Shown piece after piece: positions 1,330-38,054 of a stretch of 43,082 nucleotides of DNA; positions within the stretch are counted from its first letter, which is position 1; each line of letters opens with the position of its first letter. Location of the stretch: contig JBHLMP010000033.1 of NCBI GenBank assembly GCA_048938025.1, forward strand, positions 1 through 43,082, given 5' to 3'. The notes below the pieces were generated by a model. That model was not told where the DNA came from, did no database searches, and saw only the letters and a list, made by a program, of their open reading frames with translations. The stretch comes from Promethearchaeota archaeon. GTDB taxonomy: Archaea; Asgardarchaeota; Lokiarchaeia; Sigyniarchaeales; SOKP01. The translations under genes and the position numbers were made by a program.

Positions 1330-1550
1330 GGCCTGCGACCTTTTTTTACGATTACAAAATTTGGATCTCATCATACTTTTTTATATGATAGTAATTTATC
1401 GTTTTCGTTTAAAAATCTTCACTGTCTAATTCGCTCAATTCTCCTGATGTTACAAAACCAGATAACTAAATGGAATTAATTTCCTTTTTATTATTTCAAA
1501 TGAATTTTCATTGAAATCAGACTCTAAATTTACCTTTCTGGAAAATATAT

Positions 1551-3314: not shown

Positions 3315-3920
3315 ATGTCAAATATCGCAATAATACTCATTATTTTGTTTATAACCATTGTTATGATTATTTTCAGTATGCTTCTTAATAAAATTTTAGG
3401 TTTAAAAAAAGAAGAAATAAAAAAAATCAGAGAACATGCAATAAATCTTCGAGAACGTATGAGAAATGCTCAAGCTTTAGGAGATGCTCAATTATTGATA
3501 CAGATACAAAGAGAAACTATGCAAATAACTAGTCAAATGATGAAAAAACAGTTAATACCAATGTGTTTAAGATGTTTTATTTTTATTGGAATTTTTGCAA
3601 CTCTCAGTTTTATACTCGCTGATTATGATAGCGGTTTATTACCATTTCCTCTTTGGATTTTTGGTAGTGGTTGGTTTGCTATATATTTCCTCTTTTCTAT
3701 CAGCTTTTCATTAATAATTATTGGTATAAAAATACTGTACAAAAGAGTTATTAAAAAAGAGACTAAATCCCAGAGTTATTTAAGAGAAATTATGGGGATT
3801 TTATCTCCTACCTCTAGATTCTCACTAGGAATTTCAGATTCTGCACAATCTCAAAGAACCAACCAGACATCATCTGAAGTAGAGGATTCTTGGAAAGATC
3901 GCATTAAAAATTCAAACTAA
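3315..3920 (+). CDS. DUF106 / EMC3-TMCO1 (Oxa1 superfamily) membrane insertase-like protein
   Basis: TM1, cytosolic coiled coil, MMKKQLIPM, TM2, LPF, GWFAIYFLFS pattern. Confidence 0.75.
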   Translation: MSNIAIILIILFITIVMIIFSMLLNKILGLKKEEIKKIREHAINLRERMRNAQALGDAQLLIQIQRETMQITSQMMKKQLIPMCLRCFIFIGIFATLSFILADYDSGLLPFPLWIFGSGWFAIYFLFSISFSLIIIGIKILYKRVIKKETKSQSYLREIMGILSPTSRFSLGISDSAQSQRTNQTSSEVEDSWKDRIKNSN

Positions 3921-3976
3921 TAAAATTTAAAAATAACCTAATTACAAATATAAAAATTTGATCTAAGAACATAATC

Positions 3977-4273
3977 ATGGTTATTAATCGCAGTATTACC
4001 TTTAACTTATTTTTTATTGCACTATTTGTGGTTTTCTTAATCTTATCTTTTACAATAGATTTCTTTTTTTTTATACCATTAATATGTATACTTCCATTTT
4101 CTTTTAAGCAAAATAAAGGAAAAATTTATCCCATTCAAATAGAAAATAATTTAATTAAGAAAAAGGAAAATTACCTAATAGAAATAAAACTCTGTTCAAA
4201 TTGTAAATCAAAGATATTGGATCCTAATGCAAAATTTTGTGCTCAATGTGGAATAGAATTAAAATATAGTTAA
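3977..4273 (+). CDS. Small membrane protein with C-terminal zinc ribbon
   Basis: Hydrophobic N-terminus; CSNC...AKFCAQCG. Confidence 0.75.
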   Translation: MVINRSITFNLFFIALFVVFLILSFTIDFFFFIPLICILPFSFKQNKGKIYPIQIENNLIKKKENYLIEIKLCSNCKSKILDPNAKFCAQCGIELKYS

Positions 4274-5955: not shown

Positions 5956-6972
5956 TTATTTTTCACGCCACTGGAAACCACACTGACCACAGAGGTATTT
6001 TTTACCATACATTCTCGGATAGTCTAGAATTATATTAGATTTATCGATACTCTCGTGGATCATATGAGGGTCTTCGCAACCACACTCTGGACATTTTCTT
6101 CTTATTCCTTCCATCTTTTCAACAGTTATAATTGACTCATCAACTTTTCCTGGTATTCCCGGCGCAGCACTAGAGGCACTTGGTGGTTTAGGTGCAGAAG
6201 CAGCAGCTATATCTGCTTTTAATTCTTCTGGAGTGACATCTCTTATTTCTGCTTTACGTTCTGGTTTGATTTCAGCTACAGCTTTATCAGCTGCAGACTC
6301 AGGCTCTAGTACAGATTCAGCTCGTAATTGTACTGCATCAGATTCTTTGTAATCTATACCTCTTTCTAGAGCTGCCAAGAATTCAGCATCATCCCCTTCT
6401 TCATAAATAGTTTCATTTTGCAACCCAGCTCTATCTGCATCGATTTGTCTGGCCCATTGACCTGCTTTTACCCGTTCTTTCACATTGGAATCCCCTCCAT
6501 GCCAAATATATACTTTATTACCTAAATCAGCTAAAAAACAATCCTCTGATTCTAAAGAATCTTTAGAAAATGGAACTTGTATCATTTTCATGGTATTAAT
6601 ACCTTCAAATTCTTCAGCTGAGACGCGATATAAAACATTTTTCCATTCTGAAAAACCTGCCCAATCACCGGTGCTTACATCTTTTAATAAGGTTTTTGCT
6701 AGATTTTTTTCTACAATTTTCATTGCCCCCATCTGATTTACTATTTTCATAAATTCTGGGGTCTCTTGATTTTGATCTACCGTAATAATTTTAGCTGCTC
6801 CACCTCTTTCTTGATCTAATCTACGAGCTTGAGCTGCTCCCGCGGTTTTTTCGTCTACAGAACACTTGCCCCCGATCCAAACATAAATTGTACGTTCATC
6901 ATCTAAAAGGTATGTATCTCCCGTGGAAAACACTGGTTTTTTTACTTCTTTTAGTTCCCCTTTATCAATCAT
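5956..6972 (-). CDS. Two-domain gelsolin-like actin regulator with C-terminal zinc ribbon
   Basis: Gelsolin repeats FSTGDTYLLD...IYVWIGGKCS and LESEDCFLADLGNKVYIWHG; A/P-rich linker; CPECG...CGQCG. Confidence 0.88.
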   Translation of the reverse strand: MIDKGELKEVKKPVFSTGDTYLLDDERTIYVWIGGKCSVDEKTAGAAQARRLDQERGGAAKIITVDQNQETPEFMKIVNQMGAMKIVEKNLAKTLLKDVSTGDWAGFSEWKNVLYRVSAEEFEGINTMKMIQVPFSKDSLESEDCFLADLGNKVYIWHGGDSNVKERVKAGQWARQIDADRAGLQNETIYEEGDDAEFLAALERGIDYKESDAVQLRAESVLEPESAADKAVAEIKPERKAEIRDVTPEELKADIAAASAPKPPSASSAAPGIPGKVDESIITVEKMEGIRRKCPECGCEDPHMIHESIDKSNIILDYPRMYGKKYLCGQCGFQWREK

Positions 6973-10130: not shown

Positions 10131-12182
10131 TTACAATTCTTCATTTTCATTATTTTCGAAAAGTTCTGAATATGGCTCAAGAAAATTATTCTGACACATA
10201 GGACATGAATTATATTTAGAAAGCCAAAAAGCAACGCAAAGATAATGATATGTGCTAGCACAGAAAGGACAAGTGATAACTTGATCTCTTGCAAAGTTAA
10301 TAAAATTATGACATACTGTACACTGAATGTCTGATTGGGCAATTCCCTTTCTAATTTTAACTCTTGTAGATAAAATCTTTTCCAATTTTGATAATTCTAC
10401 CTGATAAAGACCTAATGAATGATTGAGTTGATTAATTTTTGAGTTAATTTCAACAATTCTTTCTTTTAACTCCTCTTCACTTAAATGTTCTGCTAAAAAG
10501 GATGATAAAGCAAAATTTAGTGGCAATTCTTCAAAATTTTCAGTTTGTTCAGAAATTTCAGTAATTGTCGCAAATAAAAGCCCTTCTTTTTCAATTAATT
10601 CTTTAAAACCTTTGAATAATTTATTTAATAATAACGAGATAAGAAATGCTAATTGTTGTCTTTTACGATTAAAATTATCCTCCCAAAGTTTGATGATTTG
10701 ATAAAGGTCAACATCATGTGATTTAACTGATTCTAACTTTTTATAAACCTCATCTTTGGCATTTTGGATTTTTTTATTACAATCACTTAAAATTTCTCTG
10801 ATATGTTTTAATTGGGGGAATTCCTCTTTTATTATTAGCGATGTCTGGTCCTCATATACTCTAATTAAATCATTCACTGCTGAAATTTTCTCAGTAATGA
10901 AATCTCTAATACCAACTCGTAATTCCTCATTCTTAACAGTTTCAATAAAACTTAAATATTCATTTTTTCTACGGAAAATCTCAGATGTAACATTTGAAAG
11001 AATTTTTTTTAATGAGTTTGTTATATTCTCATATGGTTTTAAATGAATTTCAAATCTTAATATCCAATCTTCAATATCATCGATTATCGAAGAAAAATTA
11101 TCAATCTTTCCATAATAGAAATTTGTTATTTCTTCAAATTCTTTTGATTGATTTACATCATTAATCTTTTCTTGAAATTTTTTCTCTATACCATTGATAA
11201 AAATTTCAACAATTTTAGGAAAAAAAATACCAATCTTCTGGTTTAAAAGCGATGCTACATTAGTCTTACTATCCTTTTCTGAGAGAAGAAATTCTTCAAC
11301 TTCATCAAGTACACTTTTCAATTTATCTGTAATTATACTTATAGCTAAAGGACGCACAAAATCTTTTAATTGTTTTATGACTTCTTTCCTTTCAAGAATA
11401 TTTATAAATTCTTCTCCCTCAAATTCTTCAAAAAGATTATTTTTATAGAGGAGGTAAATTAGATCTGAATAAGGCTTGATGTTTCCTTCATCTTTTGATA
11501 AATAATATTGGTACAATTCATCAAAATGGAATGATAAAATTCCTTCATCTTTATGTTTTTTTTCTTTTTTAGGAAAAACATCATTTAAACTCCTTACGAA
11601 TACATAAAGATCCTTAATTTCATTCCAGTTTTTAAAAGTATTCGGCAATTTATTTAATTTAAAGTTTAAATTTTTAATTCTATTTACCTCAATCCATAAA
11701 TAAATCTCATCATCATAGTTTGCTTCAATTTTTCTAATAGAATTTTTAAGAGTAGAATGTATCCTACTACTCTCATCGATAAGATGTTTTAAGTTTGATA
11801 ATGAATCTTCTAAAAATGATATTTTTTTAAATAATCTTTTAAGATTACGACTATTTGAATTTAAATTTTGTAGATTCTTTGAAATAAGATTTAGTTCTTC
11901 AACAATTTTTGATTTTAAATGATAAAAATTAATATTACCATTTGATATTGTCTCCTCAGAATTTTGTAAAAGATCCAGAAAAACTTTCAATTCATGTAGG
12001 TAATTTGAATATGAGTCAAGAATTGGAGTTGAAAGTTGTAATTTTGATTTTATATATTCCTCTATTTCAGATTCTCCAGCATTTTTAGATTCAAAATTTG
12101 CTAACTTGTTTTTTATCTCTAATAATTCTTCTTTAGTAAACCCACTTATTTCCTTAGCAACATTATTGAAAAGATTCAACAT
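10131..12182 (-). CDS. Coiled-coil protein with C-terminal RING finger (putative E3 ligase)
   Basis: CTVC-x13-CPFC-x4-HYLC-xxxW-x6-CPMC. Confidence 0.82.
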   Translation of the reverse strand: MLNLFNNVAKEISGFTKEELLEIKNKLANFESKNAGESEIEEYIKSKLQLSTPILDSYSNYLHELKVFLDLLQNSEETISNGNINFYHLKSKIVEELNLISKNLQNLNSNSRNLKRLFKKISFLEDSLSNLKHLIDESSRIHSTLKNSIRKIEANYDDEIYLWIEVNRIKNLNFKLNKLPNTFKNWNEIKDLYVFVRSLNDVFPKKEKKHKDEGILSFHFDELYQYYLSKDEGNIKPYSDLIYLLYKNNLFEEFEGEEFINILERKEVIKQLKDFVRPLAISIITDKLKSVLDEVEEFLLSEKDSKTNVASLLNQKIGIFFPKIVEIFINGIEKKFQEKINDVNQSKEFEEITNFYYGKIDNFSSIIDDIEDWILRFEIHLKPYENITNSLKKILSNVTSEIFRRKNEYLSFIETVKNEELRVGIRDFITEKISAVNDLIRVYEDQTSLIIKEEFPQLKHIREILSDCNKKIQNAKDEVYKKLESVKSHDVDLYQIIKLWEDNFNRKRQQLAFLISLLLNKLFKGFKELIEKEGLLFATITEISEQTENFEELPLNFALSSFLAEHLSEEELKERIVEINSKINQLNHSLGLYQVELSKLEKILSTRVKIRKGIAQSDIQCTVCHNFINFARDQVITCPFCASTYHYLCVAFWLSKYNSCPMCQNNFLEPYSELFENNENEEL

Positions 12183-12289
12183 AAAAATACTATGTATTAA
12201 TAGATTAGCTTATAATAATTAGAAATATATTATACAATAAATTCTTAATGATTAAAAAGAAATTATTTCTTAAGAAGGAGGGCTTTAAA

Positions 12290-12910
12290 TTATTCTCCTA
12301 ACTCTTTTATTTCTATAAATTTTTCTTCAGCACCATCTTTAGTTATTATCAGAAGATCAATACCATTACCACTCATAGCATCTCGTTTAATCGAGTTACT
12401 AATTGTTTTTTCCACTAATTGTTCCCCTTCTGCAACTGTCATATCTGGTCTATATTCTGCTTCTAAAATACCGTAAGATAACAGCATCCCGGTTCCAACA
12501 GCTGCAAAGTCATCCGGCATTAAACTCCCTATGGCATCTAACGTATATAATTTTGGACCATCCTTGTCTATTCCAGCAACTACAAGATTGTTATATAAGG
12601 GCATAAGCTTACGAGAATATAAATAGTTAGATACTAATTTTGCTAGGCTTTTTGTAGAAATACGCTCACCCGTCTCGATCTCATAAAGATTAGATTGCGC
12701 TCTTAGGATTCTTATCAAAATTTGAAAATCTCCTATCAAACCATAAGCACAAAGGCCGATATAGTCATTAATTTTAAAGATTTTCTGCGTAGATTTACTA
12801 ATAACCGTATATCCCCAAGTAGCTCTACGATCACTACCTAAAACAACACCATCCTTACATTTTATTCCCACAGATGCTGCTCCAGGAACAATTATTGATT
12901 GCTCGGACAT
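12290..12910 (-). CDS. psmB: 20S proteasome beta subunit, predicted non-catalytic
   Basis: VGIKCKDGVVLGSDRRAT, KIFKIND, DAIGS, RDAMSGNGID; GAASVG replaces GTTTVG. Confidence 0.93.
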   Translation of the reverse strand: MSEQSIIVPGAASVGIKCKDGVVLGSDRRATWGYTVISKSTQKIFKINDYIGLCAYGLIGDFQILIRILRAQSNLYEIETGERISTKSLAKLVSNYLYSRKLMPLYNNLVVAGIDKDGPKLYTLDAIGSLMPDDFAAVGTGMLLSYGILEAEYRPDMTVAEGEQLVEKTISNSIKRDAMSGNGIDLLIITKDGAEEKFIEIKELGE

Positions 12911-13020
12911 TTTCTCTATTAAAATAATAATAATTAAACTTAGTTACAAGAATAAAATAATCAGAATTAATTAAAATTTTTCTTTTAATTTATAAAATTT
13001 TACTCAATACATCAAAAAAT

Positions 13021-13505
13021 AAATTTCATTTATTATAATTCTACACTTATTATGTTTCATATTTAATTTAACCATGTGAATTATAAATTCAAGATAATTT
13101 TTACGTGTTAATTCAATTATGACTAAATGTTTATGATCAGATAATTCATAATATGATATTAAGTGGGGATTATTTTTTTCAATAAAAAATTTTTTAATTC
13201 CTTATTGAATTATAATAAAACCTATCTTATGAATAAATTTTTCAATATTAATATTTGAACAATTGTGATACTAAATAAACTCATTCATATTTTTAATATG
13301 ATCATTGAGTTAGTGATCCTATATAGGATGGTAAAACATTTATTGTGGATTGCCAATTTTCATTAAAATTTTTATAATTCCCCATTAAACCATAATAAAA
13401 CCTATTTTAAAGACCATTTACCCAAACTTGTTATTTGAATTATTTTCATTCTAACAAAATTAATTCATATTCTTTGTATGATCAACCAACAAATGATCAT
13501 AGAAA
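13021..13505. repeat. Degenerate non-coding tandem repeat, 180-bp period (~2.5 units)
   Basis: ATAATAAAACCTAT at 13212 and 13392; ATTCATAT...TATGATCA at 13283 and 13463; TGATC at 13134, 13314, 13494; 13201-13320 vs 13381-13500 about 70% identical without gaps (hand alignment). Confidence 0.7.
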
Positions 13506-13588
13506 GTTATCCTTTAATTGAAATATAAATTTTTTGTCGTAATTTTTTTCCCATTTAACTCTTTTTATTCTTCTGATTCGCCATAACA

Positions 13589-13596
13589 TTTAAATA
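13589..13596 (+). promoter_or_regulatory. Candidate TATA box for histone gene
   Basis: TTTAAATA preceded by A-rich segment, ~110 bp upstream of ATG; GGAGG RBS at 13688. Confidence 0.35.
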
Positions 13597-13702
13597 ACTC
13601 TTCAGATATAATATTATCTAAGACACTTTAAAAATAAATTAAAAAAAAATTAAAACCTTAAATTTTTAAAATTACCAATTACTAAGTGGAGGAAAAATAA
13701 TT

Positions 13703-13921
13703 ATGGCAAAGAAAAAGCATTCCTTTGCATGGAGTCCAATTCGAAGATTGATGAAGCAACAAGGTGCAACAATTGTAGCTCGTAATGCGGTTGATCTATT
13801 AATTGATCATTTAGAAAAGACAGCCTCAGGATTAACTTCGCAAGCAAGAGCATTCACAACTCATGCAAACAGGAAAAAGATTACCAAGAACGATCTTCTT
13901 CTCTCAATAAAATATAAATAA
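13703..13921 (+). CDS. Archaeal histone (HMf-type histone fold)
   Basis: SPIRRLMK..GA..V...AV..L...HANRKKIT..D; short basic N-terminus AKKKH. Confidence 0.93.
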   Translation: MAKKKHSFAWSPIRRLMKQQGATIVARNAVDLLIDHLEKTASGLTSQARAFTTHANRKKITKNDLLLSIKYK

Positions 13922-14047
13922 AAGATCTTCTTGGAAAATTGAATCAAAAACATATTTTTTTTCTATTTTTAGTTTTTAAATATTTCTAAAAGACACCTCA
14001 TTTACTTTCATCAAATTTCTTCTACATTAATACTTTGAGCATTCTAT
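13893..14047 (+). repeat. Direct repeat copy 1 (histone 3' end plus T-rich terminator region)
   Basis: ATCTTCTTCTCTCAATAAAATATAAATAAAAGATCTTCTTGGAAAATTGAATCAAAAACA... matches 16130 onward. Confidence 0.88.
13955..13977 (+). terminator. Oligo-T archaeal terminator after histone
   Basis: TTTTTTTTCTATTTTTAGTTTTT tract ~35 bp after stop. Confidence 0.55.
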
Positions 14048-14119
14048 CTATATGTAACAATCAAAAAAGACTCGATACAAATAATAAGTTCAAATAAAAT
14101 AAATAAATAGGATTTAGGT

Positions 14120-16009
14120 TTAACTTTTTTTAATCATCCTTTTTTTAATCGCTAAAGCAATGGCAACACCTAAAGTAGCTACCATCAACACTAATATGTA
14201 ACCTGAAATTACAGGAGAACCTGGTTTTTCGAGTCCCCCATCTATAATTGTCCAAGAAAAGTTAGTAATGATAAATTGTCTTGCATCCGAAGCTACACTG
14301 CTATATTTTGAATTACCTGCATTAAATGTTACACCGAATTGTAAGGTTAATTGCGACCAACCTAATAATAAATTATCATAATTAAACGTCGACAGTTTAA
14401 CTGCATAGAACATATTATTCATTGCTGTCACGCTCGAGACATTCCAATTTCCAAGGGGTTGGTCAAATGAAGAAGCACTATAGAACATATAGCTCATAGA
14501 TGTTACACTCGAAACATCCCAATTACCGAGAGACTGATTGAATGAAGAAGCACCAGAGAACATATAACCCATATATGTTACGCTCGAGACATCCCAATTA
14601 CCGATAGGCTGATTAAATGAAGAAGCCCCCCAAAACATCATACCCATTTCTGTCACGCTCGAGACATCCCAATTGCTTATAGGTTGGTTGAACGAAGAAG
14701 CATCCCTAAACATCCTACCCATAAATATCACGCTTGAGACATCCCAGTTGCCGATGGGTTGATTGAATGAAGAGGCACTATCAAACATCATAGACATATC
14801 TATTATGCTCGAGACGTTCCAATTGCCAATGGGCTGGTTGAATAAAGAAGCCCCATAGAACATCTCATAAATGTACATCACACTCGAGACATCCCAATTG
14901 CTAATGGGCTGGTTGAATGAAGAAGCCCCCCTAAACATCTCTCTCATATCTACTACGCTCGAGACATCCCAATTGCTAATAAGCTGGTTGAAAGAGGAAG
15001 CCTCATAGAACATCCTATCCATATATGACACACTCGAGACATCCCAATTACCGATGGGCTGATTAAATGAAGAAGCCCCCTCGAACATCCCTGCCATATC
15101 TACTACACTCGAGACATCCCAATTGCTAATGGGCTGGTTGAAAGAGGAAGCCTCATGGAACATCCTTCTCATATTTACCACGCTCGAGACATCCCAATTG
15201 CCGATGGGTTGGTTGAACGAAGAAGCTCCATAGAACATCTCATAAATGTACATCACACTCGAGACATCCCAATTACCAATGGGCTGGTTGAAAGAGGAAG
15301 CCTCATGGAACATCCCAACCATGGTCGTCACGCTCGAGACATCCCAGCCATTCATATTACCACTACTACCAAGATTTTCGCAACCTACAAAAGCATCAGA
15401 TAAATTAGTCGTACCTGTTAAATTCAAATTATCAGTAGCCGTGAGTTTTAAATTGAAACACCCGGAAAAATAAGCTCCTGAATCTCCTAATCGTAGGCAA
15501 CCCCATTGTTGGATTTCAAGTATCTTCAATCGATCTCCAACATTATTAAACCGCCAGCCTATGATGGTTCCTGTGATATTAATGGTGTACACTCCTTCGG
15601 AAGCATAGGTATGGGTAACGGCAGCATGATTCCAGATCGTGATCGTGTCATTACTCTCGTCGCCCCAATCCACAAAAAAGTTATAATTTCCACCCGATTG
15701 CAGTGGTAAACGTATTTGATTGCTACTGGTTGAACCCGGCTCGGTCGTGTTCCAGACTGAGATAAACACATTTGGATCTGATGCGACTGGATATTTGCTA
15801 TTAGAAACGAAACTTGTCTCCTCCGTTTCCCAACGCGACGTAAAATCGTTCGGATCTGATGCAATAGATGATAAAAATTCCATACTGGTGAATGTTTGCT
15901 TTTGTCCATAAAAAGGGGATGTAAAGGTCGAAATGTTTACTAATACTAAAGATAATACTACAAAAACTGCATCTAACTTTACTACTTTATTTTTTATCAA
16001 TCTAATCAC
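14120..16009 (-). CDS. DUF285/BspA-like LRR surface protein with signal peptide, PKD-like domain and C-terminal sorting anchor (Loki-CTERM-like)
   Basis: N-terminal hydrophobic segment; VDWGD...[15 protein letters not shown]; 13 x [25 protein letters not shown]; ISGY+TM+KKR tail. Confidence 0.9.
14393..15367 (-). repeat. 13 x 75-bp (25-aa) coding tandem repeat
   Basis: CTCGAGACATCCCAATT core recurs every 75 bp. Confidence 0.95.
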
Positions 16010-16129
16010 ATTAACTTATTAACTTTTTAACATTTATGTAGATTTCGTATGTTATGTTATAGTTTTGCCTCTCTAACATTTAAATGTTTCGTAAGTCGCG
16101 AATTACATTAAATACTCTAGAAAAATCTT

Positions 16130-16290
16130 ATCTGCTTCTCTCAATAAAATATAAATAAAAGATTTTCTTGGAAAATTGAATTAAAAACAATTTTTTTTTC
16201 TATTTTTTATTATTAACTATTTGTAAAAGACATTTCACTCATTTTCATCAAATTCTTTTTAAGATAAAATTAATACCTTGATAATTGTAT
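16130..16290 (+). repeat. Direct repeat copy 2 (duplicated histone 3' end plus terminator region)
   Basis: ATCTGCTTCTCTCAATAAAATATAAATAAAAGATTTTCTTGGAAAATTGAATTAAAAACA...; encodes LLLSIKYK* without the rest of the histone. Confidence 0.88.
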
Positions 16291-16351
16291 TTTAAAGGTT
16301 TAAATAAAGACTAGTAATAAAGAGAATATATTTTTTAGATCTTATACTTTA

Positions 16352-17326
16352 ATGAATGCTCATCTCAATTTATTAAAAAAACTTGAAGATTCATTTTGCA
16401 GCAATAATCCGAGGAGAGAAAAAGTCCTAATCAAGATTTTGGGTTACGGTGAAATGAGTGTAGTTTTTGAAATTTTAGATAATTTTAATGGATATGCCTA
16501 TAAAAGACTGGCAATTTTCGATGAAGAAAGTCAAATAGAAAGACAAATTCAAGCTTTTAAAGAATATTACAGGATTTTAACTGAAAAAATTGGTATAAAT
16601 ACTCCTCCATATGAAATTATTTGGTTTAGAGATAGATTCGAAAAAATAAAGTTTTATTATATTCAGCAAAAGCTTCCTTCTATATCTATAGGCAATAATG
16701 CTATCCATTATTTAGGCGAAAATGATATTAAGAATTTAGTTTTGTTAATAATGAGAGAGATGAGAAAAGTATGGCTTTTCAACCAATCAAATGATAGGAT
16801 AAAAGTGGGTTTTGATAGCCAGATCTCTAATTTTGCTATAGAAAATTTTAACCAAAACAATTCTAAAATAGGAACAAATTCGATTTTAATCTATTTAGAT
16901 ACAATCCCTCCTTTTTTTCGGATAAATGGCAACGAAGCGATGGACATTAATCTTTTATTAAAAACTGTACCTACATTCTTAAAGTGGATCCTGAAGATTA
17001 ATTATATACAAAAAATTATGAAAAACGTTGTCAATAGGTACTATGATCTACGCACCACTACTATTGATCTTATTGCTAATTTCTCAAAGGAGCAGAAATC
17101 TGATTTGATCCCTGCTTTAGTTAAATTAGTTAATAATTTTTTTACTCAAGAGGCTTCTGAACTAAATATTGAACCAATTTATTTGAATGAGGTTATAAAA
17201 TATTATAAACATGATAGATTAATATGGATTATATACCAATACTTAAGAAGGGTAGATAAATTCATGATAACTAAATTATTTCGAAGGAGATATGAATTTT
17301 TCCTTCCTCCAAAAATTAAAAGATAA
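16352..17326 (+). CDS. Kinase-like fold protein (DUF6206-like)
   Basis: LGYGEMSVV (Gly loop), AYKR, DSQISNF, YLDT motifs. Confidence 0.6.
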   Translation: MNAHLNLLKKLEDSFCSNNPRREKVLIKILGYGEMSVVFEILDNFNGYAYKRLAIFDEESQIERQIQAFKEYYRILTEKIGINTPPYEIIWFRDRFEKIKFYYIQQKLPSISIGNNAIHYLGENDIKNLVLLIMREMRKVWLFNQSNDRIKVGFDSQISNFAIENFNQNNSKIGTNSILIYLDTIPPFFRINGNEAMDINLLLKTVPTFLKWILKINYIQKIMKNVVNRYYDLRTTTIDLIANFSKEQKSDLIPALVKLVNNFFTQEASELNIEPIYLNEVIKYYKHDRLIWIIYQYLRRVDKFMITKLFRRRYEFFLPPKIKR

Positions 17327-17485
17327 AAAAATTTATTACGTCCTCTAATATATCAAAAACGATATTCCTTTCACAGATCTCAAGATTAATCCTTTGATAG
17401 TTGAATTTTAAAAGGGTTAAATACAATAAATAGTAACCAAAATATATTTTTTAATTCATAACTTATTAATCATAGATCATTATTA

Positions 17486-18151
17486 GTGAAAAATTGGATG
17501 CAAATGGCTGAAAATTCTGAAGAAAATAGTAATCTACAAGTAAATGGAAAAGCGAAAGAAATATTATTTCAATCTATGGAATTGATAATGAAGAATCTTC
17601 AGGAAAATATGGAACATCTTAATAAACCTAGACATTTTAAACATACCCAAAAGTTTATTGAAATGGTTTATGATGGTTTAGTGAATAAGAGAAGATTTTT
17701 CTTATTAGCGTCGGGGAGAAGTGCTTTTATATTACAATGTTTTGCTACGAGATTAGTCCATCTTGGAGCAGAGATATATATAGTTACTAATTTGGCAAGT
17801 ATGCCTGCTCTTAGAAATAAAGATATTCTAATTATTCTTTCTGGGTCAGGAACTACAGATATTGTTGTCTCGCTTCTAAAAAATATTGTAAATACTGTTA
17901 AACCATTTGGAATAGTCGCAATTACCTCTCATCCCGAAACAATTATTGGAAGAACAGGAGACGTTACAATTAAGCTTAAAGGTAGAACTAAAAAAGATAA
18001 AGTGACAGGAGATACAGCTGTTTTAACACCAGAAGGTACCATGTTTGAGGCTGCCGCATTCAGCTATTTAGATGCAATTATAGCTGAATTAGCTATTAAG
18101 CTTGGTAAAACTGATGAGGATATGCTCAAAAAGCATTCCCAAACTACATAA
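17486..18151 (+). CDS. hxlB: SIS-domain 6-phospho-3-hexuloisomerase-like protein
   Basis: SGRS, FATRLVHLG, LSGSGTT, P.GT.FE, MLKKH; real start probably ATG 17498 or 17504. Confidence 0.8.
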   Translation: MKNWMQMAENSEENSNLQVNGKAKEILFQSMELIMKNLQENMEHLNKPRHFKHTQKFIEMVYDGLVNKRRFFLLASGRSAFILQCFATRLVHLGAEIYIVTNLASMPALRNKDILIILSGSGTTDIVVSLLKNIVNTVKPFGIVAITSHPETIIGRTGDVTIKLKGRTKKDKVTGDTAVLTPEGTMFEAAAFSYLDAIIAELAIKLGKTDEDMLKKHSQTT

Positions 18152-18235
18152 CCCTATTTTTGGTTTAAATATTTAACAAGAATTCTATTTATCTTTTATA
18201 GTAAACATTAATAATTAACTTGAATAATTATTATT

Positions 18236-18300
18236 TGCGCCGATTTATAGTGTTTTTATGAGAATTTAATTCAATGAATAATAATCTCCAAATCGGCGCA
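18236..18300. repeat. GC-rich 11-bp perfect inverted repeat TGCGCCGATTT/AAATCGGCGCA, 43-nt spacer
   Basis: Arms at 18236-18246 and 18290-18300 between convergent genes. Confidence 0.8.
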
Positions 18301-18304
18301 CATT

Positions 18305-19174
18305 TTATATGAGTAAGGCACCAATTGCGGCACAATATTCTGAATTCTTTAAAAATACTGCTTTTTTTTTGTTAACCTTACATATTAATGCTAAAATTTT
18401 CTTTGCTAACCTATTTTCTTTTAAAAAACCTCCACAAAAAATAATACTTGAAATATCATAATTTTCGGCCATTAAGTTTGCCATTGTGCTTATATTTTCA
18501 GCGATCATGCATATTATTGAATTGATACAATCCTCTTTTTTCAAATTATTCATATTGAAATTTAGATCAATCTTTCCCAAGGATGCCGCTGTAAACTCCC
18601 TAAATAGTAAATCAACTCTGTCATCTTCAGGAGCATAAATATCAGATACTTTTAAATCAACATTATACCTAGTTCCTTTTTTAGCTAGGTTTAAAGCATC
18701 TTGGAAATCATCTAAATTGAATAAAATTTTAATCAACCCCATTAAAAAACCTCCTCCCAAAGCAGTACCCCCTAGGTGCTCAACAGAATCTTTTTTAGAA
18801 ACCATCGAGGTTCCTGTTCCGATGGTCACGATTAAAGAAGGAGATAGCTCTTTCTTTTTTTCTAATAGATGAAGGATTTCAATTCCTTTAACGTTAGCTT
18901 CAAATTCATTTATTAATTTTGTTTCAACTGTTTGTGAATAGTGTTGATATAAATTGAAGCTTTTTCCTCCTGTAAAATTAATTTTTTTGAATTGTTTTAC
19001 ATTCGACTCTAAAGCTATTTTGAGTGAAGTTAAATCAGATTGAGTTAGATAGTAAGATAATTGTAATGTATCACCATTTAAATAAGCAATTTTGGAAAGC
19101 GTTTGGCCCATATCGACTCCAATTGTATCTGCTGGTATTTTAATATTTAGATTATCTATGTTTATACTAAACAT
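18305..19174 (-). CDS. Type II pantothenate kinase (Fumble/CoaW-like)
   Basis: GVDMGQTLSK, IGTGTS, GGTALGGG, DLKVSDIY, TAASLGK, FCGGF, AIGAL. Confidence 0.85.
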   Translation of the reverse strand: MFSINIDNLNIKIPADTIGVDMGQTLSKIAYLNGDTLQLSYYLTQSDLTSLKIALESNVKQFKKINFTGGKSFNLYQHYSQTVETKLINEFEANVKGIEILHLLEKKKELSPSLIVTIGTGTSMVSKKDSVEHLGGTALGGGFLMGLIKILFNLDDFQDALNLAKKGTRYNVDLKVSDIYAPEDDRVDLLFREFTAASLGKIDLNFNMNNLKKEDCINSIICMIAENISTMANLMAENYDISSIIFCGGFLKENRLAKKILALICKVNKKKAVFLKNSEYCAAIGALLI

Positions 19175-19264
19175 CTTTTTTATCCCTTAACTTAAAATTC
19201 TAATCTTTCATTATTTTATATTAATATTTCAATTTAATAAATCAATTTTGTAAATCATTCTTAC

Positions 19265-20737
19265 ATGATAGATCAGCCAAACTTAGAAAATGTTGAAGTT
19301 GCAATAATTAAGGGAAATACTCCAAAAGAGGGTGTTCTGGAAGGAATTGAGAAACTTGGTGGAATCTCCAAATTTATTAATAAAGGAGATCAAGTTTTCA
19401 TTAAATTTAATTTAAATTTACCTCATGGATTTCCAACAAATACTAATTTTAACGTATTAAAGGCATTAATTAAATCTTGTAAGAAAGCAGGGGCTAACAA
19501 AATCTACTTGGGAAGTTTTCCAGTTAAAGGTTTTTCAATTTATGCAATTTCAAATTTATTAAAGCTTCATAATTATTTTGAAACTCTTGGAGCAGAATTA
19601 GTATATTTAGATAATAGTAACTATTATAACCAGAAAGGAATAAAACCAGATAAATTAAAAGAAATTAAGGAAAAATCGTTTTCAAAGGTTGAAGTATATA
19701 ACAATGAAATAAAATTTCCAAACATAGTCCTTAATTCAGATAAATTAATATTAGTAAATCAAGTTAATGTGGAGCCTTTATTCAAATGTAATTTATCAAT
19801 ATTAAATTACTATTCAATCATTCCAAATGCATATCAGGAAATTGAAAAAAATGTACGAGCAGGAAAGGATTATTTATTTCTTGATCAATACAAACAAGAT
19901 TTAGTTTCTAAAATTATTGACATTTCTACAATAAAAAAACCCGATTTAGTAATAAATGATTTATTTTATATAATGGAAGAAGCTGGTCCGTATATTTATA
20001 AGGATTCAAAACTAAAAACTACAGGTTTAATTATTGTTGGTAATGATCCTATAGCTGTTGATTTAATTACACTAAATCTAATGAATATTAATAAGGTTGA
20101 TAGTAAACTAATTTTGGAAGCTCAAAATAAAAAAGTAGGTATTACAGATATTTCAAAATTAAATCTCTTGGGAGAAAGATTCGAAGATAATAGAATAAAT
20201 GTTTCTTTATGTGCATCGAAGCTTGAAAACATTAAAACACCAAATTTTTCAATTAGATCAGGCAGTTTTTGTTCAGGATGTTCAAAACAGGCTTATCATT
20301 TTTTAAATTTTATAAAAATGCATATGAGAAAAGATGTAAAATATAATCCAAAAAATTCGTTTTTGATTGGGGAAAATCCCTTAGATCCAGAACATTTTGA
20401 ACATATTATTCTATTTGGAGATTGTTGTATTAATAGCACAAAAAATCGTAGTTTTAGAAAAGTTATAAAGAAATCTCATAAAAATGTAGCAAATGAATCA
20501 AAGCAGAAAAAATTTAAAAAAGTAAAATCCACCAAAAAGGGAAAAACTAAGGTAAAATTAAATAAAAAAATATTGGAATTGCCAGGATGCCCACCCGACA
20601 TATTTAGCTCCTTAGAACTATTACTAAAATATTATGGAAAAAAAAATTCTCCAAATTTAAAGTTAATTAGTGAAATGATAAAATCATGGAGACCTCAACA
20701 AACTAAAGAAAAATTAGAGTTATGGGAGGCGCTCTAA
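19265..20737 (+). CDS. DUF362-domain Fe-S protein
   Basis: LGGISKFI..GDQVFIKFN, DPIAVD; C-terminal CSGC, GDCC, PGCPP. Confidence 0.8.
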   Translation: MIDQPNLENVEVAIIKGNTPKEGVLEGIEKLGGISKFINKGDQVFIKFNLNLPHGFPTNTNFNVLKALIKSCKKAGANKIYLGSFPVKGFSIYAISNLLKLHNYFETLGAELVYLDNSNYYNQKGIKPDKLKEIKEKSFSKVEVYNNEIKFPNIVLNSDKLILVNQVNVEPLFKCNLSILNYYSIIPNAYQEIEKNVRAGKDYLFLDQYKQDLVSKIIDISTIKKPDLVINDLFYIMEEAGPYIYKDSKLKTTGLIIVGNDPIAVDLITLNLMNINKVDSKLILEAQNKKVGITDISKLNLLGERFEDNRINVSLCASKLENIKTPNFSIRSGSFCSGCSKQAYHFLNFIKMHMRKDVKYNPKNSFLIGENPLDPEHFEHIILFGDCCINSTKNRSFRKVIKKSHKNVANESKQKKFKKVKSTKKGKTKVKLNKKILELPGCPPDIFSSLELLLKYYGKKNSPNLKLISEMIKSWRPQQTKEKLELWEAL

Positions 20738-20738
20738 A

Positions 20739-22322
20739 ATGAGAATCAATGAAAAATTCAAAAACAACTGGAAAAAAATCATTGATTTTAATTCTAAAGC
20801 AAATATTGTAGAAGATATCAAGGGGTTAAAAGAAATTGTTAGAATTCCCTTAACACCTATAAATCTAGAAGCGAATATTTTATATTATTTACACGAAACT
20901 CTTTATCCAAAATTTATAACTGATCAGCAAAATATACTTGACCTTATTATCTCTGAAGAAGATATTAAGAATAGAACGTTAGGAATATATTTATATCCTA
21001 CAAAAAAAGCTGGTATACATGAAAAAATTGAAAAATTACCTATAGATATCATTAAAATTAAAGAAAAAGATTTTGATGATTTTGATGAGTTATTTACAAA
21101 CCTTCAAAAAACTATATTGAAAAAAAAGGCAATAAAGATATCAAGCTTTCGATTATTTAAGAAAACTGCAATAGATTTATTAAATAAGTATTGTGAACAT
21201 ATTGAAACGCTTTCAAATTATGAGTTTATAAAGAGATTTTTAGATTTAATTCAGGATTTAATAGAGAATGATTTATTTTATATATTTCCTGAACCCAATA
21301 TTTATAGATTTTTAAAAAAAATTATAACACTATTGAATGGAATTAAATTATCCAAAATTTTTGAATTAATTACCGAATTTACCCCTGTTTTTAATCTTTT
21401 GTTTATTCTTAATTCTAAAAATTTAGTATTAACTTCTCAAATACAAAAAAAGATTTCTAAAACAAATATCTCAGAGATTTTATTAAAAATAGATAAGCTT
21501 GATGAATTTAGAGATAATGAAGATCCTCCAAATATTCATGATACAATGATGCAAAATAAACTAAAATTTAAAGTTGATAATGTAATATACTTAAGCCAAA
21601 ATGATATTTTGTCTTTTTTTTCAGAGTTATTCGATTTAGAAATCCCATTGAATAAGGATAGTATAAATCTTATTGCTCAAAAAGTTTTATTTGGATATAG
21701 ACGATTTGAAGATCGTTGGAATATTGCTCCACGACCAACTATTTATAATAACCTTAGAAGATTCATATTTAGACTTTTTGGCTTTAATTTGAATCTTAAA
21801 AAAATCTCATATTGGACAATTCCTGAATTGCTCTCTAATTGTATTAATGTCTACTTTGGATTAAATTCTAAGGTTTTAGTTTTCTTAACTAATATTCAAA
21901 ACTATAAAAACTTAAATTTAAAGACAATAGATTATCTAAAAGTTGCTTCAGAAAATATATTCTTATTAGAAATTGAGGATAGTTCCTTGACGAAAGTAAT
22001 CCCAATTAAAAGATCTAATCTTTTTTCTAGTAAAATTGAATCTCTTGAACTAATAAGATCAAAGATTTCTGAAACTTATGGCTTTATATCATCAATTTTA
22101 ATAATTGATAAATATCTGATGATGAAATTTTTAGAGCTATTTGTTTTTAAATTAACTAAATTTTCTCCTATTAAAAAATTAAAAATATTAAAACTATTTA
22201 AACAAAAATCCTATTTCAATATGTATCCAGAGCTTCCAATTTATAGATTGTTCCAACAAAAAGGAATTATTTCATTTTTAAGATTAATATTGCCCGTTTT
22301 GATTGATAAACATGAATTTTAA
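20739..22322 (+). CDS. Hypothetical protein, coupled to the DUF362 gene
   Basis: 527-aa ORF starting 2 nt after upstream stop, GGAGG RBS. Confidence 0.7.
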   Translation: MRINEKFKNNWKKIIDFNSKANIVEDIKGLKEIVRIPLTPINLEANILYYLHETLYPKFITDQQNILDLIISEEDIKNRTLGIYLYPTKKAGIHEKIEKLPIDIIKIKEKDFDDFDELFTNLQKTILKKKAIKISSFRLFKKTAIDLLNKYCEHIETLSNYEFIKRFLDLIQDLIENDLFYIFPEPNIYRFLKKIITLLNGIKLSKIFELITEFTPVFNLLFILNSKNLVLTSQIQKKISKTNISEILLKIDKLDEFRDNEDPPNIHDTMMQNKLKFKVDNVIYLSQNDILSFFSELFDLEIPLNKDSINLIAQKVLFGYRRFEDRWNIAPRPTIYNNLRRFIFRLFGFNLNLKKISYWTIPELLSNCINVYFGLNSKVLVFLTNIQNYKNLNLKTIDYLKVASENIFLLEIEDSSLTKVIPIKRSNLFSSKIESLELIRSKISETYGFISSILIIDKYLMMKFLELFVFKLTKFSPIKKLKILKLFKQKSYFNMYPELPIYRLFQQKGIISFLRLILPVLIDKHEF

Positions 22323-24269: not shown

Positions 24270-25310
24270 ATGAAAAATCCGTTTAATCGCTTTTATCACG
24301 TGCCAAACTCCCAGGAATTATTAGATATAGCCTTTAAAAGAGGGATGAAAAGCTCTGCTCAAGTCTCAAAAAATGCTCCTATACTAATTAAGGCAAAAAA
24401 AAAAGAATCAAAGCGTATAAAGGTTACAATTGAGGATTTAATTGACAGGATTCTTAATATAATAAAAATGGTTCCAATTATGGACGATCTTCCAGATTTT
24501 TACAGAGAATTAGCTTCACTTTTAGTTAATACAAATAATTTAAAATTAGCATTAGGTAAATTAAATGGAATTTTACCTGTTCTAAGGCAAATTGAAAGAG
24601 AGTATACCAGTAAATTAAGCAAAATCGAAATACCTAAAGAAGGAGATCAATTGCGAAGAGCTGCTTTTGGAAGAATATCTTCAATTATTAATAAACAAAA
24701 CAAAAATCTTATTTATTTGAATAGCATAAGAGGAAACTTAAGAGAAATTCCTTCAATTGATCCCACTTCACCTTGTGTTGTTTTTGCAGGATATCCTAAT
24801 GTAGGAAAAAGTAGTCTTGTAAAAAATATTTCTACTAATAAAAAAATTGAAGTTCAAGAATACCCGTTTACTACAAAAAAATTAATATTAGGCCATTTAG
24901 AAATTAAAAGAAAATTTGATCAAATTAAATTGCAATGCTTAGATACTCCAGGAATTTTGGATCGTCCAATGACATTAAGGAATAATATTGAATTACAAGC
25001 AATTTTGGCATTAAGATTGATCTCTGATTTTATAATCTTTGTTTTTGATCCTACTCCTGCGTGTGGTTATTCAATTAATTCTCAAATAGAATTGTATTAT
25101 GAAATTAAATCTAATTTCACTAGAGATGGAAAAGTAAATCTTCTAATAGTAATAAATAAAATAGATTTAGCAAGTCCTTCAGAAATAGAATATTTAAAGA
25201 AAGAGTTACAATTACAGGAAGAGGACTATTTTTTAACTAATGCTTTAACAGGAGAAAATCTTGATCAACTAATAACTTATTTAAAAAATAGATACACTGA
25301 TACGAATTGA
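24270..25310 (+). CDS. NOG1-family GTPase
   Basis: GYPNVGKSS, YPFTT, DTPGILDRP, RNNIE, NKID. Confidence 0.92.
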   Translation: MKNPFNRFYHVPNSQELLDIAFKRGMKSSAQVSKNAPILIKAKKKESKRIKVTIEDLIDRILNIIKMVPIMDDLPDFYRELASLLVNTNNLKLALGKLNGILPVLRQIEREYTSKLSKIEIPKEGDQLRRAAFGRISSIINKQNKNLIYLNSIRGNLREIPSIDPTSPCVVFAGYPNVGKSSLVKNISTNKKIEVQEYPFTTKKLILGHLEIKRKFDQIKLQCLDTPGILDRPMTLRNNIELQAILALRLISDFIIFVFDPTPACGYSINSQIELYYEIKSNFTRDGKVNLLIVINKIDLASPSEIEYLKKELQLQEEDYFLTNALTGENLDQLITYLKNRYTDTN

Positions 25311-35726: not shown

Positions 35727-38054
35727 ATGCGAAATATGGAGTCTCCGCCTTCTAAAAAAAAATTTATCGGAGCTCTAATATTATTAGCTCTTGGGTTTGC
35801 TTTGATACCGACTGGTTTTCTGCTTAATGATTTTATTCAAACTGAAATTGATAAAGGTATTGCAAATGAAATTCGAATACCTGAACCAGATGACTCAAGT
35901 TATGATGAGTGGATATCAAATGATTATCCAAGTGCCATTCCTATGTACAGAAAATTTTATATGTGGAATTTAACTAATCCTAATGAGTTTCTTATGGGAA
36001 AGAAACCAGAGCTTGAAGAAGTTGGTCCTTATACTTTCCGGGAATATACAACAAAATATAATGTGAGTTATAGTGCCAAAATGGATGAGGTAACCTATAA
36101 ACAATACCCAACATATATATTTCAGCCTGATATGTCTGCTCCCTTATGTTCTCTTGATGATAATATTATAAACGTAAATCCTGCTTATTTAGGAGTTCTG
36201 GAATTAGCGGGAAATGAGGAAAATCTAATTAAAGCCATGTTTCCAACTGTTCTTTCAGAAGTAAAAACCCTATTTGGAGAAGAATTAACTGTAACTTTAG
36301 GAGAACTTTTAACTAATGATGGAATTTATAACATGCTCGTAGGGGCTTTGTCTGACATACTTAGCGATTTATTTTCTGGACTTCTTGGTGATGAGGCTAC
36401 AAACCTAACTGCTACATGGATAGTTGATTTTCTTACTACATACATCGTACCGTTAGAAGATCTGGTAGAATTTATGGATGATGCAATGCCTAGTGCTGAA
36501 GCAATTTTCTTTGCGGAATGGGCAAATGATTATTTTCCTGAAGTTCAAGTGGATTTATCTATTTTATTTAGACATATATTAGAAGTAATAAGCGATCTTG
36601 TTGATTTTATTATTGATCTCATTTTCTTTTGGGATGTTTTACACTTATTTGATGCTATTAAGGATGCTCTGCATGAAGAACTTATGAACATGTTTGAAGA
36701 GTTATTTACTGAATCTCCACTAGCAGAGTTAATTGGAGGACTCTTTGCTGATTTGATCCGAAGCCTGGGTGCTAAAATGGTTGATGAGGAAGGTAGCGAA
36801 ACGGGTGAAGGAGTTGATCTGGATGGTCGAGAACCCTATAATTTCCCAGGCCCAAGTTCTGATTTGAATATCATTAATCGTAGTGAAGCTGGTGAGTCTG
36901 GAGTCACTCAGGAGCAATGTCAGGCTCTTTGGGATCAGAACAACCCAAACTCACTTCTTGGTATGGATGTACAGGTTAATCCAATATGGTTTGAAGCATT
37001 AGCAGGAATTGAAGAAAGTAAAATATTCTTAATGAATGCATTTTGTTTAAATGAAACTCAACTAGATTTAATTTTGAATTGGATTGATACGAGTTTAAAT
37101 GGATGGCTCAAAAATATCTGTGAATATTCGATAAAAGATTGGAATAGCGGTTTACTTACTACTCGTACTGTCGAAGAATGGCTCTTCACAGCTGTGGATA
37201 ATTTAGTAAATATCCAAGATCCGAACGAAGCTAAAGTAGGAATTTTTGACAATTGTTTTTCTGAAGCTGAAGCAGAAGCTAAGGGTATGAAAAATTTCAC
37301 TATAAATACAGGTAAATATGATATTAATAAAGTCTGCGATACTGTTAAATATAACGGTGAGACAGTTATTGCTGTTTGGGAAGAAGATGAAATTGTTCGA
37401 GGTACAGCGGGTACTCAATTTGCCCCGAGGGTTTCAAAAAATAACCCTCTTTATGTTTTCATTACTGATTTATTAAGAACAGTAGAGATTATCTATACTG
37501 AAACTACGAGTATTTACGATATTGAATTATATAGGTTCGAAATATCAGAGGAGACCTTTAAAGTTAATCCAAAATACTACCAATCAATTGAAGGGGTAGC
37601 TAACATGACAGTTGATCAAGGAATTCCTGCTTTCTTAAGTAAACCTCATTTTCTTAATGCAAGTAGCTATATGAAAGAGGCTGTAAATGGTTTAAATCCC
37701 AATAAGCTACAACATGATACTTATCTTGATATTGAACCTTTAACGGGCGCTACAATGAATGCGGCTGAAAGAATACAAATTAATTTTTTGGTTAATCAAA
37801 CTGATATATGGTATAAAAATTGCTGGGAAGGCATAATGCCTATTCTTTGGCTTGAATTTGGTGGACAAATAACAGAAAATCTAGCAAATAAATTCAAAAA
37901 TTTGGTTTATACCGCTCAAAATCTAAGTGAAAATCTATTTTATAGCTGTATTGGTATTGGGGCTACCCTCATTATTCCTGGTGCGATTTTTACAACAACA
38001 CAGAATAGAAAGCGATTAAACGTTAAAAAACAAAAATTATCACAAACTGTTTAA
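35727..38054 (+). CDS. CD36/SCARB (LIMP-2/SR-B) family membrane protein with large helical insertion
   Basis: N- and C-terminal TMs; FYMWNLTNP.E...G.KP.LEEVGPYTFRE; NTG..DI; GT.GTQF.P; LSKPHFL; GL.P...H.TYLDIEPLTG....A..RIQIN. Confidence 0.88.
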   Translation: MRNMESPPSKKKFIGALILLALGFALIPTGFLLNDFIQTEIDKGIANEIRIPEPDDSSYDEWISNDYPSAIPMYRKFYMWNLTNPNEFLMGKKPELEEVGPYTFREYTTKYNVSYSAKMDEVTYKQYPTYIFQPDMSAPLCSLDDNIINVNPAYLGVLELAGNEENLIKAMFPTVLSEVKTLFGEELTVTLGELLTNDGIYNMLVGALSDILSDLFSGLLGDEATNLTATWIVDFLTTYIVPLEDLVEFMDDAMPSAEAIFFAEWANDYFPEVQVDLSILFRHILEVISDLVDFIIDLIFFWDVLHLFDAIKDALHEELMNMFEELFTESPLAELIGGLFADLIRSLGAKMVDEEGSETGEGVDLDGREPYNFPGPSSDLNIINRSEAGESGVTQEQCQALWDQNNPNSLLGMDVQVNPIWFEALAGIEESKIFLMNAFCLNETQLDLILNWIDTSLNGWLKNICEYSIKDWNSGLLTTRTVEEWLFTAVDNLVNIQDPNEAKVGIFDNCFSEAEAEAKGMKNFTINTGKYDINKVCDTVKYNGETVIAVWEEDEIVRGTAGTQFAPRVSKNNPLYVFITDLLRTVEIIYTETTSIYDIELYRFEISEETFKVNPKYYQSIEGVANMTVDQGIPAFLSKPHFLNASSYMKEAVNGLNPNKLQHDTYLDIEPLTGATMNAAERIQINFLVNQTDIWYKNCWEGIMPILWLEFGGQITENLANKFKNLVYTAQNLSENLFYSCIGIGATLIIPGAIFTTTQNRKRLNVKKQKLSQTV

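Follow-up and report, generated by a model that had tools for sequence, protein, structure and literature searches.

Single genes inserted with probable long target duplications behind the histone gene of a Promethearchaeota archaeon

Several known systems leave a gene lying between two copies of its target. Att islands, integrated by a tyrosine recombinase into the 3′ ends of tRNA or protein genes, regenerate the gene end and displace a duplicate of it downstream; relatives show empty sites, and one gene may be used repeatedly. All of this is found at the locus described here, which lies in a 43,082-nucleotide contig of a Promethearchaeota archaeon of the class Lokiarchaeia (JBHLMP010000033.1 of assembly GCA_048938025.1; the whole contig is called the window below) and in which a gene for a DUF285 protein stands between an archaeal histone gene and a second copy of that gene's 3′ end. 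The differences are that no integrase is present in cis, the only candidate to act in trans being a housekeeping Xer-like gene; that the edges of the duplicates vary, whereas att sites share one core; that the cargo is a single ordinary gene; and that the same layout occurs elsewhere at unrelated sequences. An earlier note, made from the sequence alone, had proposed att-type site-specific integration into the histone gene. Our analysis leads to another reading: the repeat would be a long target duplication and not an att site, and the att/integrase interpretation is unsupported.

Transposons also produce the order left flank, target (T), cargo, T, right flank. The sharp edges of the duplications described here, and the single-copy T found in sister genomes at one further locus (on contig C23), are in line with them. 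But transposon target-site duplications are 2–15 nt long and fixed, whereas T is here variable and 60–363 nt long, with no transposase and no terminal inverted repeats at the cargo ends (a repeat search of the window found no inverted repeat pairing the ends of the DUF285 cargo, and scans of the window and of the cargo open reading frames (ORFs) found no transposase family). Template switching of the MMBIR/FoSTeS type (microhomology-mediated break-induced replication; fork stalling and template switching) and templated insertions at repaired breaks have been described mainly in eukaryotes and bacteria. They resemble the present case in inserting a distant segment with a local duplication and in needing no dedicated enzyme or site; they differ from it in that microhomology is not demonstrable here, that the cargo is always one whole gene and that a search of the genome yielded no retained source copy. 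Integron cassettes are likewise single-gene units at a recurrent site where a resident promoter can be used, as by the DUF6206 gene described below, which stands behind a copy of the promoter of the neighbouring SIS-domain gene; but there is neither IntI nor an attC-like element here, and the repeats copy the target, not the cassette. In Asgard archaea, the aloposons and integrated viruses of Heimdallarchaeum are described as integrating at tRNA genes and carrying giant genes together with a conserved element gene set (PMC8813620). They are comparable in being lineage-specific insertions in Asgard genomes, whereas at our locus the window holds no tRNA and the cargo is one small gene. Full-text searches, judged on their listings and the beginnings of abstracts, brought up no paper about long target duplications in archaea.

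Two insertions between the histone and SIS genes

The genome (G000) is a metagenome-assembled genome (MAG) of 3.52 Mb in 88 contigs, 96.7% complete and with 5.1% contamination, and the window is its contig C35. We searched 54 genomes of the genus and took the locus from 37 other genomes, mostly MAGs; the histone gene is present in 36 of these stretches. In G000 the order of features is histone, T1, DUF285, T1, T2, DUF6206, T2, SIS, where T1 and T2 are segments that each occur twice. The histone gene (13703–13921, plus strand) codes for 72 amino acids, of which residues 11–68 match PF00808 (37.3 bits for a cut-off of 21.4; E 3.3e-9), and its last 28 nt lie inside the duplicated target. The protein is 91–99% identical in 33 of the 36 relatives having a match and 78–80% identical in G024 and G067.

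Copy A of T1 (13893–14047, plus strand) consists of the histone tail, the T-run of the terminator and the start of the old histone–SIS spacer; copy B (16130–16290, plus strand) consists of a remnant histone tail, the rest of the gene being missing, followed by old spacer. The repeat search aligned 13893–14024 with 16130–16261 without gaps (132 nt, 86% identity, spacing 2237), and the whole-genome self-search extended the match with gaps to 13893–14047 against 16130–16290 (161 columns, 82%, E 3e-38). Both searches thus recovered the repeat of about 150 bp, running from the last histone codons through the terminator and recurring 2237 bp downstream, on which the earlier note was built. Its description as nearly identical and then decaying also holds: a three-way alignment gives 73 identities in the first 80 columns and 41 in the next 54, and the longest exact run common to the copies is 29 nt. 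The left edge lies within the histone ORF, 28 nt ahead of the end of the stop codon, so that the repeat spans the codons for (D)LLLSIKYK and the stop and continues through the T-rich terminator; there is no histone similarity upstream of 16130. T1 is not a dispersed element, an objection foreseen at the outset, since the 3.52 Mb of the genome contain only these two copies and one T-rich match of 55 nt (77%, E 8e-4). The exact 29-mer common to both copies was absent from the metagenome and viral contig collections searched. Because the copies have diverged to 82–86% identity, the insertion of the DUF285 gene is an old event.

The inserted DUF285 unit (14082–16129, minus strand), delimited by its match to contig C31 of G012, extends from 38 nt past the stop codon to 120 nt ahead of the start. 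Its ORF (14120–16009, minus strand; 629 amino acids) contains 11 tandem 75-nt repeats and hydrophobic N- and C-terminal ends, and matches PF03382 in five stretches (586 bits for a cut-off of 25; E 1.8e-179). It is the only gene between the T1 copies and is oppositely oriented to the histone gene, as had been noted. It is also GC-richer, with a GC content of 0.404 and a third-position GC content (GC3) of 0.419, compared with a genome GC3 of 0.199 ± 0.032 (1466 open frames of at least 300 codons). The 120 nt upstream of the start may include TATA-like boxes. Two other DUF285 genes are present in the genome (C33, 95093–96532, and C71, 2895–4184), with GC3 values of 0.356 and 0.437; GC3 is therefore raised in all three (0.36–0.44 vs 0.20 for the genome), and it is not raised in the cargo genes of the other insertions described below.

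A comparison of relatives, suggested in the earlier note as a check, revealed empty sites. In G012, one of the two closest relatives having this locus assembled, window positions 10632–13922 and 17383–22000 align to one contig (88.7% and 93.2% identity) with only 106 nt between the blocks, and in G043 the histone stop codon and the SIS gene are 212 nt apart. Consequently the segment 13923–17382, with the DUF285 gene, the second T1 copy and the DUF6206 gene, is extra in our genome. The DUF285 unit is at the histone locus of neither G012 nor G043, and it is a real inserted islet. A relative of it, 84–86.5% identical to 14082–16129, is found at another place in G012 (C31; L017 4301–6208), surrounded by unrelated genes that have no counterpart in our genome, and the homology stops at the base preceding copy B; the cargo would thus be of foreign origin. 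No convincing flanking repeats were found around this unit of G012 and no recognisable gene-tail remnant beside it. Among viral contigs, DUF285 has one relative at 29% identity, which is uninformative.

The second duplication is shorter. The left copy of T2 (16266–16344, plus strand) is a copied SIS promoter region now standing ahead of the DUF6206 gene (16352–17326, plus strand; PF19709, E 1.3e-17), and the right copy (17382–17460, plus strand) is the working SIS promoter region, ahead of the conserved SIS-domain gene (17486–18151, plus strand; PF01380, E 6.9e-8); synteny with G012 resumes at 17383. The copies are identical at 56 of 79 positions, and sliding the 79-mer across the window gave, at 42,795 other positions, a top score of 45. 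The left copy can be aligned with the sequence upstream of SIS in G012 and G043. The relations become clear when the spacers of these two genomes are included in a five-way alignment: copy B of T1 plus 16266–16344 is the complete old histone–SIS spacer, copy A is its left part, and 17382–17460 is its right part, i.e. the SIS promoter region. Neither G012 nor G043 has DUF6206 at its histone locus; the homologues of this gene in relatives are 64–68% identical and located elsewhere. There are, then, two single-gene insertions, each with a target duplication, and that of DUF6206 is probably the older, because T2 is more diverged than T1 (71% identity vs 82–86%).

Could the two copies of T1 be an artefact, strain variants having been joined in series in a MAG? 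The assembly is one of 88 contigs with 5.1% contamination, and the contigs of several related MAGs end just past the histone gene. Against this, a join through k-mer overlap would leave one hybrid copy rather than two copies 82–86% identical. In an independent assembly, that of the closest relative G056 (92% nucleotide identity), a DUF285 gene likewise faces the histone gene, the contig stopping inside that DUF285 gene, and the layout is also present in G003 (on a 649-kb contig), G022 and G058. Three sequencing runs contain 64–97% of the sampled words of 13300–17600, a figure that is region-wide and not junction-specific. We regard an artefact as extremely unlikely.

Recurrence in the genome and across the genus

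A self-search of this genome alone for local direct-repeat pairs of 45–450 nt lying 0.3–8 kb apart gave 127 pairs, 12 of which were flagged as a gene 3′ tail with a remnant copy. Four were dropped: two pairs on C42, which belong to a tandem paralogue array, and the C6 and C70 2702 pairs, where the flagged ‘gene’ is merely an ORF of 64–81 amino acids. Among the eight left, five enclose exactly one complete gene, namely that of the histone locus (C35) and those of C23, C62, C66 and C72. On C23 (locus L041), a 249-nt duplicate of the 3′ coding end of a 174-amino-acid gene (1911–2159 and 3917–4165) flanks a NosD/beta-helix gene. On C66 (24350–27130), 208 nt of the tail of the neighbouring gene are duplicated and the cargo is a CARDB plus binding protein; on C72 (28401–29808), the duplicated neighbour-gene tail is 110 nt long and the cargo is an FkbM methyltransferase; and on C62 (4996–8039), 363 nt of a neighbour-gene tail flank one gene. 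The gene lying next to the C62 event is a paralogue of the C66 cargo (75%).

The clearest of these cases is C23. In both G056 and G012 the 249-nt segment is in single copy and contiguous with both flanks, so that left flank, T and right flank in the sisters can be set directly against left flank, T, cargo, T and right flank in our genome, a textbook example. A single-copy target in its state before insertion, from which both copies derive, is seen at C23 (against G056 and G012) and in the histone spacer (against G012 and G043). On C72 the cargo, the remnant and the next gene are missing in G012. C62 and C66 were rejected as empty-site cases: the C66 insertion is common to G012, and the C62 cargo has in G012 a related but rearranged counterpart. 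The T segments of the four loci other than the histone locus (110–363 nt) are unrelated in sequence and some lie entirely within coding sequence. The edges of the duplications are sharp, their lengths run from 60 to 363 nt, and inspection by eye of the edges of ten duplications revealed no common motif. The cargo is convergent with the intact gene in all five loci, a number too small to test, and has the opposite orientation in G022 and G003.

The other two DUF285 genes of the genome are, judging from the comparison with relatives, lineage-specific insertions too. On C33 (94953–96706, locus L100), TrxR2 and the only tyrosine recombinase gene of the genome are separated by an inserted DUF285 paralogue; TrxR1, TrxR2 and the Xer-like gene are directly adjacent in G012, G043 and G056, and our genome has 1.7 kb more, with the DUF285 gene. 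A remnant adjoining the 5′ end of this DUF285 unit is similar to the end of TrxR1, two genes away (19 of 32 residues, E 3.7e-6), and not to that of the neighbouring TrxR2. On C71 the DUF285 gene lies within a 4.5-kb block missing from G043. The 52-nt repeats that flank it were considered as a target duplication and rejected, for they belong to a dispersed element some 50 nt long with 10 matches in the genome (window 1491–1538; C71 81–136, 1558–1684, 2734–2781 and 4474–4522; others on C23, C76, C52 and C51). Four copies of this element separate the genes of the C71 block; the element matches nothing in Rfam and lacks a stable fold.

Across the genus, the histone gene has a conserved neighbour on each side. 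On the left is the proteasome beta subunit gene (12290–12910, minus strand; PF00227, E 5.4e-56), whose synteny with the histone gene holds in 16 of a first set of 17 relatives (the seventeenth stretch stops short of the histone gene) and in 11 of the 20 relatives of a second set, where many stretches begin past the proteasome gene. On the right is the SIS gene, and the distance to it ranges from 0.21 to 7.6 kb in the 25 relatives with both genes on one stretch, being below 0.4 kb in four only (G012, G018, G019 and G043). The first gene past the histone gene varies in nearly every species: flavin reductase, FGGY kinase, MazE-PIN, TPR, LRR, NosD, Imm5-like, glycosyltransferase, acyltransferase, GNAT and unknown genes were met, toxin–antitoxin genes being among them. 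On these comparisons the spacer behind the histone gene is an insertion hot spot. Of the earlier proposal that the histone gene is an integration site for adhesin cassettes, the recurrent insertion point stands, with tail duplicates in four of 36 genomes and empty sites in others, and the specificity does not, the cargo not being specifically adhesins. In eight related assemblies (L022, L023, L027, L030, L033, L037, L058 and L063) the contig stops at most 2.4 kb past the histone gene or, in G017, just ahead of it; these breaks fit the presence of repeats or strain variation there. Three relatives carry the SIS gene in inverted orientation with respect to the histone gene (L036 in G023, L066 in G057 and L076 in G011).

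Duplicates that contain histone coding sequence were found in four of the 36 genomes scanned, ours included. Their left edges, counted from the end of the stop codon, are at −28 (G000), −33 (G022), −47 (G003) and −54 (G058), and they enclose respectively the DUF285 gene, a 210-amino-acid ORF, an LRR protein and 291 nt. Second copies are clearly nearest to the first copies of their own genome, at 86% vs at most 72% in G000 and at 85% vs at most 75% in G022; the duplications of these two genomes are separate events, whereas G003 is ambiguous. G004 and G011 have possible duplications that stay within the intergenic spacer.

A different history that formally gives the same final layout is a tandem duplication of the histone gene with its spacer, the DUF285 gene later overwriting the second copy save its last 28 nt. 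Tandem paralogue arrays do exist in the genome (C42 and the TrxR1–TrxR2 pair). But this history requires two events and an exact deletion; a second full or half histone copy is seen at the locus in none of the 36 relatives, only tails of 28–54 nt; and the single-copy state is observed directly in sister genomes at C23. G058 gave an occasion to look for a plain tandem duplication, of 395 nt, and this was rejected, since the 291 nt enclosed by the copies bear no relation to the unit that comes next (z = 1.1). A tandem relic is in our opinion decidedly improbable.

What could make this particular spacer attractive? A hairpin is predicted across the histone stop codon (13884–13934, plus strand; RNA fold of −12.8 kcal/mol), pairing the codons of the last histone leucines with the bases right after the stop, and the left edge of T1 (13893) falls in its 5′ arm. 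In relatives the arms differ between clades and are complementary nevertheless, e.g. CTTCTTT/AAAGAAG, CTCCTT/AAGGAG and the 13-bp TCTTATCTATCAA/TTGATGGATAAGA, and the mean best stem at histone tails is 6.59, compared with 5.54 ± 0.17 for shuffled tails. It may be, and this is a guess, that the hot spot is due to the hairpin and the T-run of the histone terminator.

Recombinases and the origin of the insertions

The absence of an integrase from the window, remarked upon previously, was borne out by a family scan of 35 of the 38 ORFs of at least 110 amino acids plus the 72-amino-acid histone ORF, in which no recombinase or transposase family was detected. Nor did any turn up when 83 cargo ORFs that follow the histone gene in 26 relatives were scanned (of the second listing, which had 60 ORFs, 43 were covered). 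For an enzyme acting in trans, as had been postulated, the genome offers little: a single PF00589 match (C33, 97153–97662), and no match to PF00239 (Resolvase) in an assembly that is 96.7% complete. This PF00589 gene belongs to a high-scoring class (136–151 bits, open frames of 307–329 amino acids) present once per genome in 49 of the 54 genomes of the genus, and we infer that it is an Xer-type housekeeping recombinase. G022 also has only the Xer-like gene, and none was found in G003. A retro-copy of an mRNA was considered and discarded, as the genome, at the same completeness, contains no match to PF00078 (RVT_1) and the DUF285 unit carries the 120 nt upstream of the start codon.

These data bear on the att model, in which the histone 3′ end would be an attB site and attP cassettes would be integrated in trans by a lost or virus-borne integrase, or by the host Xer-like enzyme in the manner of Xer-exploiting elements. 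The recurrence behind the same gene in four of 36 genomes and the existence of empty sites are what such a model predicts, the 29-nt exact run could be its core, and the only tyrosine recombinase of the genome adjoins another DUF285 insertion, on C33. However, the 29-nt run within a repeat 82–86% identical is compatible with an old att core and with plain divergence alike, and the 29-mer is absent from the viral and metagenome contigs. The four left edges differ, with possible spacer-only duplications in G004 and G011 in addition; the cargos are unrelated and encode no recombinase; and the layout is repeated at four other loci with T segments of unrelated sequence, some of them wholly inside coding sequence. 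With no recombinase beyond the Xer-like gene in G000 and G022, and none found in G003, we consider the att model improbable. Loop-out of the cassette by recombination between the T1 copies, also raised in the earlier note, is possible.

The explanation that we favour, giving it about an even chance, is a one-step duplicative insertion through a long staggered break or through template switching, for which neither a site nor a dedicated enzyme would be needed. The ancestral layout would have been histone gene, spacer (L+R) and SIS gene. In a first step the DUF6206 ORF would have been inserted behind the SIS promoter with duplication of some 80–95 nt of the promoter region (T2); in a second, a DUF285 unit of 2,048 bp, from promoter to terminator, would have been inserted with duplication of about 155 nt (T1, which begins 28 nt inside the histone gene and reaches the start of R). 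The order DUF6206 then DUF285 is the most likely one. Each event would yield left flank, T, cargo, T and right flank, leaving the neighbours intact and letting the cargo borrow a copy of a promoter or terminator. As to the chemistry, captured DNA might have become enclosed when a break with nicks 60–370 nt apart was filled in on both sides of it; alternatively, synthesis during replication or repair might have switched template to the cargo and re-entered upstream of its exit, as in MMBIR/FoSTeS. Selection would then have retained only those outcomes that leave the neighbouring genes whole.

Several observations weigh against this explanation. The junction at 16129/16130 has just ‘AT’ in common and the left junction lies somewhere in 14048–14105, blurred by AT-rich sequence, hence no microhomology can be demonstrated. 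No close source copy of any cargo was found in the genome, the best being 70–78% identical, so that intragenomic copy-and-paste is not supported. Every cargo is exactly one complete gene, which neither random breakage nor random template switching predicts, and for the copy-B junction the assembly is the one source. In G056 the spacer is different and shorter, and its DUF285 gene is only 80% identical to ours, i.e. less than the C31 copy of G012; given this, the history of the locus is more complex than one event. Finally, simple target duplication does not account for the TrxR1-like remnant on C33.

A rival explanation is import by recombination with DNA of a related strain, the two T copies then descending from donor and recipient and not from one sequence. 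This could happen if a circle of T plus cargo, looped out of another genome through its direct repeats, entered at T through one homologous crossover (Campbell type), or if a linear fragment used homology to anchor one of its ends while the other end was joined illegitimately (homology-facilitated illegitimate recombination). No special enzyme is required; the cargo has no close source in the genome and has relatives 84–86% identical in other species; on C33, the remnant of another gene's tail travels with the DUF285 unit beside the conserved Xer-like gene, as one-sided anchoring would give; and the C23 remnant is nearer to G056 (91%) than to the in-gene copy of its own genome (85.5%). Import cannot, however, produce the first T–cargo–T structure. 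At the histone locus, moreover, copies A and B of G000 are equally near to copy A of G056 (69 of 79 positions each) and match each other at 73 of 80, and in G000 and G022 the second copies bear species-specific features of their own first copies. As the origin of what we see, import is possible though unlikely; for the spread of such structures, it is a serious rival of duplicative insertion.

Taken more broadly, duplicative insertion might be a regular, recombinase-free mode of gene gain in these Asgard-like archaea, in which whole single genes arrive with target duplications of 60–370 nt, comparable in length to Okazaki fragments or histone-wrapped DNA, the neighbours are left intact, promoters or terminators are handed over, and the hairpin-terminator end of the highly expressed histone gene serves as a preferred entry. 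We find this generalization rather doubtful. Should it be true, prokaryotes would have a class of insertion footprint not described before, and if a general process lies behind the layout, it shows how gene-rich genomes of the Asgard type may acquire accessory genes with none of the customary machinery of mobile elements. Most of the genes gained here code for surface and repeat proteins, and the layout would also illustrate the way in which incoming genes are connected to promoters and terminators already in place. The divergence of the T copies is a dated footprint that could be used for timing gene gains across the genus. Annotators should take such remnant gene tails neither for att sites nor for pseudogenes of tandem duplicates.

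Other genes of the window

The segment 13000–17600 has no Rfam match. The remainder of the window contains several genes of eukaryotic type near the locus: gelsolin repeats (5956–6972), a membrane protein resembling EMC3/TMCO1 (3315–3920) and a NOG1 GTPase (24270–25310). A further gene of this type, at 10131–12182, codes for a protein of 683 amino acids with a C-terminal RING finger. Family profiles likewise detected Ras-family genes, and together these finds fit an Asgard archaeon. A 775-amino-acid ORF at 35727–38054 matches the CD36 scavenger-receptor family (PF01130, E 3.2e-99), which to our knowledge is otherwise eukaryotic.

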